From: a virus
Strand: one strand, 5' to 3'
Virus record (IMG/VR): IMGVR_UViG_3300029258_002616
DNA: 11,678 nt
Under the pieces are notes generated by a model that saw only the letters and a list, made by a program, of their open reading frames with translations, was not told the origin of the DNA and ran no database searches. Positions 3,027-4,148 of this stretch are shown piece after piece (within the stretch, counting starts at the first letter, position 1; each line of letters begins with the position of its first letter). A program made the translations under genes and the position numbers.

Positions 3027-3524
3027 ATGAAAAAAGAACTTGAAAAAAAATTAAGAACTAGATTTAAATTTTTTACAGTATCACCTGAAGTAGAAGATGG
3101 TTGGTTTGATTTATTATGGAACTTATGTTTTGAATTAGAATCGTGGTGTTTTGAAGGAGAGACAACTCAAGTTAAAGAGAAATTTGGTGGATTAAGATTT
3201 TATGTAACTTCTGCGGCCGATAGAGAGTATAGGATAATTCATGCGTATGAGGAGAAGTCATATACTATTTGTGAATTTTGTGGCGGAAAAGGAAAGCCAA
3301 GAGAAAAATTAGCATGGAGATTAACCTTATGTTTTAAATGTTATATCATAAAAAGAATTAAAATATTTTTTGACTTTATTACTTTTTCAGCATGGAGAGC
3401 AAAAAGAAGAATAAATCGTTTTATTAAAAGATATAAAATAAATAAAGAAATAAAGAAAGCAGAAAAATTAGGTGCTTATGACGCAGTCGAACATCAGACA
3501 AGCGAAAATAATTTTATGCCGTAG
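3027..3524 (+). CDS. hypothetical protein with C-terminal CxxC…CxxC zinc-ribbon motif (165 aa)
   Basis: ATG 3027 lies 4 nt after AGGTG; the ORF track's GTG 3021 is the alternative start. CEFCGGKG…CFKC motif. The TAG stop at 3522-3524 lies in the acceptor stem of the following tRNA-like element. Confidence 0.6.
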   Translation: MKKELEKKLRTRFKFFTVSPEVEDGWFDLLWNLCFELESWCFEGETTQVKEKFGGLRFYVTSAADREYRIIHAYEEKSYTICEFCGGKGKPREKLAWRLTLCFKCYIIKRIKIFFDFITFSAWRAKRRINRFIKRYKINKEIKKAEKLGAYDAVEHQTSENNFMP

Positions 3525-3595
3525 TATCCACGCCCGCTACGAACGGGTAGTAAGGTAATTGGACGAAAATGCGGGTTCAAATCCTGCCTACGGCG
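3518..3595 (+). tRNA. aberrant tRNA-like element with an Arg(ACG) anticodon arm and no canonical D-arm
   Basis: Perfect acceptor gccgtag/ctacggc plus discriminator G. Canonical T-arm gcggg-TTCAAAT-cctgc. Well-formed anticodon arm gcccg-cTACGaa-cgggt (U33, A37, anticodon ACG). But only 7 nt (tatccac) separate the acceptor from the anticodon stem, and 22 nt (agtaaggtaattggacgaaaat) separate the anticodon arm from the T-arm. Confidence 0.35.
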
Positions 3596-3838: not shown

Positions 3839-3916
3839 TTGCTCGAGTGGAAAGAGACCAGTCTGCTACACTGAGGTCGGGTATAGCCCGCATAGGTTCA
3901 AATCCTATACTGTCCG
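3833..3916 (+). tRNA. tRNA-Ser (anticodon GCT), class II
   Basis: Acceptor ggatagt/actgtcc with one U-G. 3-bp D-stem ctc/gag. Anticodon stem cagt/actg, loop cTGCTac (anticodon GCU). Variable arm stem cggg/cccg. T-arm atagg-TTCAAAT-cctat. Discriminator G73, as expected for Ser. 84 nt. Confidence 0.8.
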
Positions 3917-3934
3917 AATAGGAGAAGAAGAAAA

Positions 3935-4057
3935 ATGAAAATAATTGATCTAAAAAAATATAAAAAGAAAGAATCAAAAAAAAGAAAGGAAAAAAGAGAA
4001 GAGATAATAAAAAAAATTATAAAATTGTCAGATCATCTATATCCGAATAAAATCTAG
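3935..4057 (+). CDS. small Lys-rich hypothetical peptide (40 aa)
   Basis: ATG 8 nt after TAGGAGAAG. Translation MKIIDLKKYKKKESKKRKEKREEIIKKIIKLSDHLYPNKI. The TAG stop forms part of the tctagaca -35 element of the downstream promoter. Low complexity, so this could be spurious. Confidence 0.3.
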   Translation: MKIIDLKKYKKKESKKRKEKREEIIKKIIKLSDHLYPNKI

Positions 4058-4084
4058 ACAATATCATTAATAATAGAATATAAT
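4055..4084 (+). promoter_or_regulatory. sigma70-like promoter upstream of the MVP-like gene (TAGACA-N18-TATAAT)
   Basis: -35 tagaca 4055-4060 and -10 tataat 4079-4084. It sits within a 16-mer, aatagaatataattaa, that recurs identically at 9231-9246 in front of the carbamoyltransferase gene. Confidence 0.45.
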
Positions 4085-4148
4085 TAACTATAGAGATTTT
4101 TTACAAAAGATCCTATAAATTTATTATAAAAATACAAAGGAGGTTTTA

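Follow-up and report, generated by a model that had tools for sequence, protein, structure and literature searches.

Early promoters of the T4 and T5 classes are strong promoters of virulent phages that are read by the host sigma-70 holoenzyme. Temperate phages carry morons, a concept of Hendrix and co-workers, in which a gene is flanked by its own promoter and terminator; the concept applies to prophages, where a moron is expressed even though the prophage is repressed. PeSLs (promoter-early stem-loops) of T4-like phages are cassettes that combine a terminator with a promoter (Arbiol et al. 2010, PMC2839356; Comeau et al. 2014, PMC4122927). They recur many times per genome in intergenic DNA, chiefly in hyperplastic regions beside ORFans. 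Their layout begins with an upstream stop codon in AT-rich DNA and continues with a sigma-70-like promoter, a stem-loop and then an SD sequence and a start codon (PMC2839356; PMC4122927). The stem-loop acts as a terminator or attenuator; it can precede the −35 and −10 boxes, lie between them or overlap them, and the consensus variants, such as TTTACW and TTGYVH, differ by phage group (PMC2839356; PMC4122927).

The DNA studied here, referred to as the window, is a stretch of 11,678 nucleotides with a GC-content of 30% and with every gene on the plus strand. It contains eight tRNA genes predicted with ARAGORN and a ninth predicted with Rfam, and the protein-coding genes include those for a 931-aa MVP-like protein, a metallophosphoesterase and a NodU-type carbamoyltransferase. 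Most genes have GGAG-type SD sequences; the host is therefore an SD-using bacterium, to which the −35/−10 promoter logic is applicable. Exact-protein look-ups located the phage in several metagenomes, solely as contigs of up to 13.3 kb, and seven contigs from six samples are collinear with the window and 99.99–100% identical to it. Datasets containing the phage are ERZ27256770, ERZ27256778, SRR6963311, SRR6963479, SRR14699969 and JGI 3300029267 and 3300017987. Relatives of the MVP-like protein (38–42% identity) are encoded by viral contigs of 190–359 kb and by uncultured huge phages of 462–735 kb, which suggests that the window belongs to the genome of a phage that is uncultivated and probably large. 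No near-identical DNA was found among GenBank phages. At the protein level, the MVP-like protein had matches only in huge uncultured phages, and the carbamoyltransferase only in Bacteroides, Acinetobacter and Xanthomonas phages, with less than 40% identity.

Two copies of a promoter-like module, P1 and P2, lie in the window in direct orientation (Table 1). The octamer TCTAGACA, found both by direct reading and with a repeat finder, is followed in each copy by the 16-mer AATAGAATATAATTAA (4072–4087 and 9231–9246), and the identity reaches one base further in the 5′ direction, giving the 17-mer TAATAGAATATAATTAA. The full repeat is 43 nt long and identical at 35 positions. The original prediction of a duplicated module was confirmed by direct reading and the repeat finder for both copies, except that copy 1 ends at 4087 and not at 4088. 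The gap between the octamer and the 16-mer, described as N16 or as 18 nt, is 11 nt in both copies. The proposed TAGACA-N18-TATAAT arrangement proved correct (4055–4084 and 9214–9243), with 11 of 12 positions agreeing with the sigma-70 consensus. An additional pair of AATAGAAT motifs does exist, but at 7911–7918 and 7922–7929 rather than at 7913–7928. The distances to the two genes, given as 45–60 nt, are different. The −10 box of P1 ends 64 nt before ATG 4149. From the end of the −10 box of P2, it is 30 nt to the ATT at 9274, which is the probable start, 48 nt to TTG 9292 and 75 nt to the ATG at 9319 chosen by the gene caller.

The identity between P1 and P2 is distributed in blocks. It is perfect in the 8-nt −35 block (about −38 to −31) and in the 17-nt block (about −20 to −4), drops to about 5 of 10 positions in the spacer between them, and the flanks are unrelated. 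This is the pattern that would be expected from selection on promoter elements, or from a copied promoter later adapted locally.

Table 1. Coordinates of the modules, the units they precede and related sites (window coordinates, except for the last line).
Feature	Position	Strand	Description
P1 (copy 1)	4045–4087	+	AT-rich upstream part; TCTAGACA at 4053–4060; identical 17-mer at 4071–4087
P1 boxes	−35 TAGACA 4055–4060; −10 TATAAT 4079–4084	+	predicted start near 4090–4092
MVP-like gene	4149–6944	+	931 aa; MVP_shoulder and Vault_3 domains; SD GGAGG 5 nt before ATG
Hairpin after MVP-like gene	6966–6986	+	GC-rich, 9 bp, then T7 (6987–6993); −16.2 kcal/mol, 0/200 shuffles
AGGAGAATATAATTAA	6999–7014	+	14/16 match to the module −10 block; just after the MVP terminator, 2 nt before ATG 7017
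Looser member	7900–7929	+	TAGATA-N18-TAGAAT-TAA; holds both AATAGAAT copies (7911, 7922); before 39-aa ORF at 7946
Looser member	8160–8189	+	TTTACA-N18-TATAAT-TAA, TG at −15/−14 (extended −10); before metallophosphoesterase ATG 8225
P2 hairpin	9193–9224	+	13-bp stem, 6-nt loop, T-run (T8 in all, 9220–9227)
P2 (copy 2)	9204–9246	+	TCTAGACA at 9212–9219; identical 17-mer at 9230–9246
P2 boxes	−35 TAGACA 9214–9219; −10 TATAAT 9238–9243	+	predicted start near 9250
NodU/CmcH-type carbamoyltransferase	9274–11040	+	probable start ATT 9274, 6 nt after GGAGG
P3	11478–11508	+	TAGACA-N19-TATAAT with GGAATATAATTTA; before AAA_28/UDG genes
L064 promoter-like sites	1–28, 1241–1268, 7166–7194, 8486–8513, 15609–15636	coding strand	L064 coordinates

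P1 and P2 are probably functional, strong promoters of the sigma-70/sigma-A type that are read by the host RNA polymerase. The sigma70-like reading is supported in silico by the near-consensus hexamers, the 18-nt spacer, and the location on the coding strand in intergenic DNA with SD-led genes downstream. Both modules agree with the consensus at 5 of 6 positions in TAGACA and at all 6 in TATAAT, which places them among the three best sigma-70 matches in the window. However, the total number of consensus-like promoter matches in this AT-rich window is 65 versus 61 in shuffles. Agreement with the consensus is thus weak evidence by itself; what carries the case is the repeat, together with the association of TAGACA with TATAAT. 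The combination TAGACA-N17–19-TATAAT was observed three times in the window versus 0.01 expected, always on the plus strand. In the 13.3-kb contig, TATAAT follows three of the five plus-strand TAGACA hexamers at a distance of 18–19 nt versus none of the three minus-strand ones, and all three −10 boxes fall within the approximately 10% of the contig that has no gene or tRNA annotation. The motifs GAATATAAT (4 copies versus 0.56 expected) and TATAATTAA (6 versus 1.2) were found on the plus strand only.

Scans of sequence collections bear on the reading that the modules are a chance likeness of low-complexity AT-rich intergenic DNA with no function. The 17-mer gave 41 matches in viral contigs, one per contig, and the 16-mer gave at least 120 matches in metagenome contigs, all single; the contexts of the 16-mer that were examined were unrelated AT-rich DNA with no second copy per contig. 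A composite-pattern scan of viral contigs returned six matches, all unrelated. With +1/−2 scoring, which sees the 17-mer block alone, the pair is the best direct repeat in the window, with a score of 20 versus a mean of 15.7, and one of 60 shuffles reached this score; the 17-mer block by itself is only marginally beyond chance. With +1/−1 scoring, the 43-nt pair has a local score of 27, above all 150 dinucleotide shuffles (mean 19.7, sd 1.4, maximum 25). It is therefore the two-block architecture in register that makes the repeat significant. A functionless coincidence is also at odds with the three TAGACA–TATAAT pairs, all on the coding strand, intergenic and before genes, and it is extremely improbable.

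The modules resemble the T4 and T5 early promoters in their near-consensus hexamers, AT-rich upstream DNA, conservation between copies past both hexamers and the use of one promoter type for many genes, whereas T4 early promoters have GTTTAC-type −35 boxes in place of TAGACA. In the mechanism proposed for P1 and P2, the host sigma-70/sigma-A holoenzyme would bind TAGACA and TATAAT over the 18-bp spacer with the aid of AT-rich upstream DNA. The recognition elements would be TAGACA as the −35 box, the 18-nt spacer, TATAAT as the −10 box within the conserved string GAA-TATAAT-TAA, and the AT-rich stretch 5′ of the −35 box. Two features count against a sigma-70 reading: the A at the second −35 position departs from the strongly conserved TTG, and the perfect identity from −20 to −13 has no explanation in known sigma-70 contacts.

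The modules may instead be promoters of the middle or late class made for phage-directed machinery, i.e., a phage sigma factor or an activator that reads TAATAGAA just upstream of the −10 box. The 17 nt of perfect identity (−20 to −4) reach far past the −10 hexamer, the unusual −35 variant TAGACA is used three times, AATAGAAT is in excess (9 copies versus 2.2 expected), and one protein of the phage contig L188, whose carbamoyltransferase is 48% identical, has a weak Sigma70_r2 match. On the other hand, no sigma-like or regulator-like protein is found among the window ORFs, the hexamers and their spacing are those of the housekeeping class, the TAATAGAA block is not kept in P3 or in the looser members of the family, and two copies are too few to tell selection from common descent. 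Recognition by a phage factor seems unlikely, and reading by the host holoenzyme is preferred. Sequence anatomy, statistics and hairpin stability are shown directly; that RNA polymerase initiates at the modules, with which sigma factor and at what time, and whether the repeats take part in recombination, are matters of inference.

The TAG at 4055–4057, with which the −35 box of P1 begins, also serves as the stop codon that closes a 40-aa ORF (3935–4057) located 3′ of the tRNA array. The hairpin that can be drawn at this copy is weak, with −6.2 kcal/mol, z = −2.0, an 18-nt loop and no T-run, and seven of 200 shuffles fold as well. The MVP-like gene would be served by the putative promoter P1. 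Transcription from the predicted start would produce a leader of approximately 57 nt with the SD sequence GGAGG, continue through the gene and end at the hairpin behind it, making a monocistronic transcript. This hairpin is a predicted intrinsic terminator closing the P1–MVP unit, and since the gene has both P1 and its own 3′ terminator, the segment 4055–6986 can be considered a putative self-contained unit.

The promoter–gene–terminator organisation of this unit is moron-like, as is its composition: the GC-content of the MVP-like gene is 0.33–0.35 versus 0.22–0.29 in the DNA downstream. The unit differs from a moron in that its promoter type would also serve neighbouring genes here. Within the MVP-like gene, an 81-nt direct repeat (6294–6374 and 6624–6704, 330 nt apart) has the top +1/−1 repeat score in the window (29); it encodes part of the C-terminal, Lys/Glu-rich portion of the protein.

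The hairpin of P2 is considerably more stable, with −16.2 kcal/mol, z = −6.25 and none of 200 shuffles folding as well. The −35 box lies inside its 3′ arm, and the TAG stop codon (9202–9204) of the ORF 8959–9204 lies inside its 5′ arm. The original prediction overlooked that TCTAGACA in copy 2 is the 3′ arm of a terminator hairpin. The structure probably ends the phosphoesterase operon as an intrinsic terminator that is merged with the promoter following it. The carbamoyltransferase, which matches a PHROG family of auxiliary genes, would then be served by the putative promoter P2: transcription would be restarted just after the hairpin whose 3′ arm doubles as the −35 box, begin near the predicted start and proceed through a leader of approximately 24 nt to the probable ATT start of the gene. 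As the hairpin would stop transcription of the phosphoesterase operon, the carbamoyltransferase is proposed to depend on P2.

A different meaning can be given to the same inverted repeat. TCTAGACA may be an operator half-site of a dimeric repressor, with AATGTCTAGA-N6-TCTAGACATT in copy 2 forming a protein-binding palindrome over the −35 box and not a terminator. The 10-nt arms do form a perfect inverted repeat, the core TCTAGA is palindromic and present in both modules, and overlap with a −35 box is typical of repressor operators. However, copy 1 has one half-site, its partner TTGTCAGA being imperfect and 20 nt off, and P3 has TAGACA only. In copy 2, which alone is palindromic, the repeat is followed by T8 and lies exactly on the upstream stop codon, which is the anatomy of an intrinsic terminator. 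In addition, TCTAGACA with up to one mismatch is not enriched (7 versus 7.5 expected). The operator was rejected as the main explanation and is considered very unlikely; a terminator fused to a promoter is the preferred reading of P2. A structured-RNA reading was also rejected. Neither copy matched Rfam at the gathering threshold, with sub-threshold noise (E = 0.17–0.94) around 9150–9330 and nothing in 3900–4200, and the leaders are not unusually structured (z = −1.7 and +1.1).

The start of the carbamoyltransferase was assigned separately. The rare start codon ATT at 9274–9276 (region 9263–9319) is the most likely one. Homologues with about 48% identity begin with MKLLITLGHNSSAIG, which aligns residue for residue with IHLLITLGHNSSAIG, and the match to the Pfam N-terminal domain begins at residue 12 with position 12 of the profile. 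The ATG at 9319 proposed by the gene caller would cut off the invariant LGHN motif. The gene is flanked by genes for the metallophosphoesterase and for AAA_28 and UDG-family proteins (8225–13276 in contig L001, window numbering), and its nearest homologues (L188 and L189) reside in phage gene clusters for nucleotide metabolism or modification, together with genes for dCMP deaminase, dUTPase, glycosyltransferase, radical SAM and dNK proteins. This neighbourhood hints at a DNA-modification role.

The layout of both modules is close to that of PeSLs: they are repeated intergenic modules of the same organisation that precede accessory genes, with TAGACA as a variant of their own. The upstream stop codon lies in the −35 box in P1 and in the hairpin in P2, and GGAGG with a start codon is found downstream of both. 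P2 fits the PeSL description feature for feature, and P1 does so except for a convincing stem-loop (−6.2 kcal/mol, z = −2.0, compared to −16.2 kcal/mol, z = −6.25, in P2). The differences are the number of copies, with two close and one to three looser ones in 13.3 kb versus about 50 per T4-like genome, the spacer of 18 nt versus 17, and no sign that the phage studied here is T4-like. The modules resemble PeSLs in how they would work, and we do not file them as PeSLs.

The similarity to PeSLs brings in the question of recombination. The repeats may be mainly recombination substrates or scars, i.e., a PeSL-like mobile cassette bringing in or looping out the 5.2-kb segment from the MVP-like gene to the ORF 8959–9204, with the identity reflecting recent copying. 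Such an origin is consistent with direct repeats in the same orientation flanking accessory genes, with the stop-codon, hairpin and promoter layout, with the moron-like MVP unit having its own promoter and terminator, and with the elevated GC-content of the MVP-like gene relative to the downstream DNA. The uninterrupted identity, however, is just 17 nt, which is short for homologous recombination, and the hairpin of copy 1 is weak. No P1/P2 junction or deletion occurs in the seven collinear contigs, and recombination between copies, a PeSL trait that shows in indels between related genomes and in mini-circles, was not seen in this set, whose members are 99.99–100% identical and include no diverged relative. 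The same identity means that the available contigs allow no evolutionary test of constraint on the modules. Recombination is also compatible with promoter function and no replacement for it, and as the main role of the repeats it is rather improbable; we retain the promoter reading of P1 and P2. A broader version, in which the 43-nt modules would be PeSL-like mobile terminator/promoter cassettes in an uncultivated lineage of large phages outside the T4-like group, where they reshuffle accessory genes and drive their expression, among them those for the MVP-like shell protein and for a carbamoyltransferase of DNA modification, with TAATAGAA (−20 to −13) possibly read by a phage factor that sets timing, is speculative and unlikely to hold as a whole. 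Most likely, these are ordinary strong promoters of the bacterial type, and the union with a terminator hairpin seen in one of them is common among large phages.

P1 and P2 are not alone in the window. The third TAGACA–TATAAT pair, P3, has its −10 box within the 25-nt gap ahead of the AAA_28 gene (ATG 11514). Its 19-bp spacer is outside the usual 16–18 bp, whereas the 18-bp spacers of P1 and P2 are inside this range, and only 5 nt separate TATAAT from the A of the ATG; both features count against the proposed promoter family. Two looser members precede the 39-aa ORF and the metallophosphoesterase gene. The original prediction regarded co-regulation of the vault-like protein and the carbamoyltransferase as notable; a specific co-regulation of the two is not supported, as P3 lies before the AAA_28/UDG genes and the looser members before yet other genes. 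The module is therefore better described as the best-conserved form of a promoter type that would serve multiple units, rather than as a connection peculiar to these two genes, and it looks like the general strong promoter type of this phage.

Several other sites have a partial likeness to the modules. The status of the AGGAGAATATAATTAA site as a promoter is doubtful because it has no −35 box. The sequence GAATATAATT[A/T]AAT adjoins the ATG of two genes (7017 and 11514), and the stretches 7003–7019 and 11500–11516 are identical at 16 of 17 positions. At both starts, TATAAT is 5 nt from the A of the ATG and an SD-like GGAG/AGGA sequence is located 12–14 nt upstream; these may be leaderless starts or starts with an unusual ribosome-binding-site spacing. 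On the minus strand, TAGACA-N18-TAAAAT at 2808–2779, in the gap after the RNaseH-like gene, is identical to P1 at 23 of 30 positions. It was rejected as a family member, as no SD-led ORF lies behind it, and it may be an antisense promoter or a chance occurrence. The over-representation of AATAGAAT concerns the window as a whole and was reached by none of 200 shuffles; eight of the nine copies are on the plus strand. Four copies lie inside coding regions, so not all of them are promoter-related.

The closest relatives share 47% identity with the MVP-like protein and 48% with the carbamoyltransferase. In a comparison of orthologous promoters, their upstream regions proved not alignable. The carbamoyltransferase genes of relatives sit within operons with no promoter before the gene; the promoter is therefore not conserved with the gene. 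L064, an AT-rich phage contig encoding the 47%-identical MVP-like protein, contains five near-identical TTAACA-N16/17-(G)TTATAAT sites, one of them directly after the terminator behind its MVP-like gene, and TTGACA-N17-TAGATT precedes the MVP homologue in the contigs L065–L067. It thus seems that these phages usually have stand-alone MVP-like units and sigma-70-like promoters of which each lineage repeats its own version.

Provided that the modules are active, they offer a usable map of transcription for part of a large phage not known otherwise. On this map, the MVP-like gene would form a unit of its own, probably with high expression, and transcription would start afresh behind a terminator to reach the carbamoyltransferase. 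The matrix TAGACA-N18-GAATATAATTAA can be used to annotate the remaining genome once it is assembled. The value of these predictions lies in annotation and in the choice of parts for expression studies of the phage vault-like protein; they change no concept.

Two further observations concern the window itself. The ninth tRNA, at 3518–3595 (Rfam RF00005, 30 bits versus a gathering score of 29, E = 1.4 × 10−4), is located inside a 233-nt unannotated gap, where neither ARAGORN nor Rfam with its default filters reported it; its T-arm resembles those of the other tRNAs in the window. Contigs of three independent assemblies (ENA and two Logan runs) start within 4 nt of window position 1, and this shared start at 1–4 may mark either the physical end of the genome or the border of a repeat.
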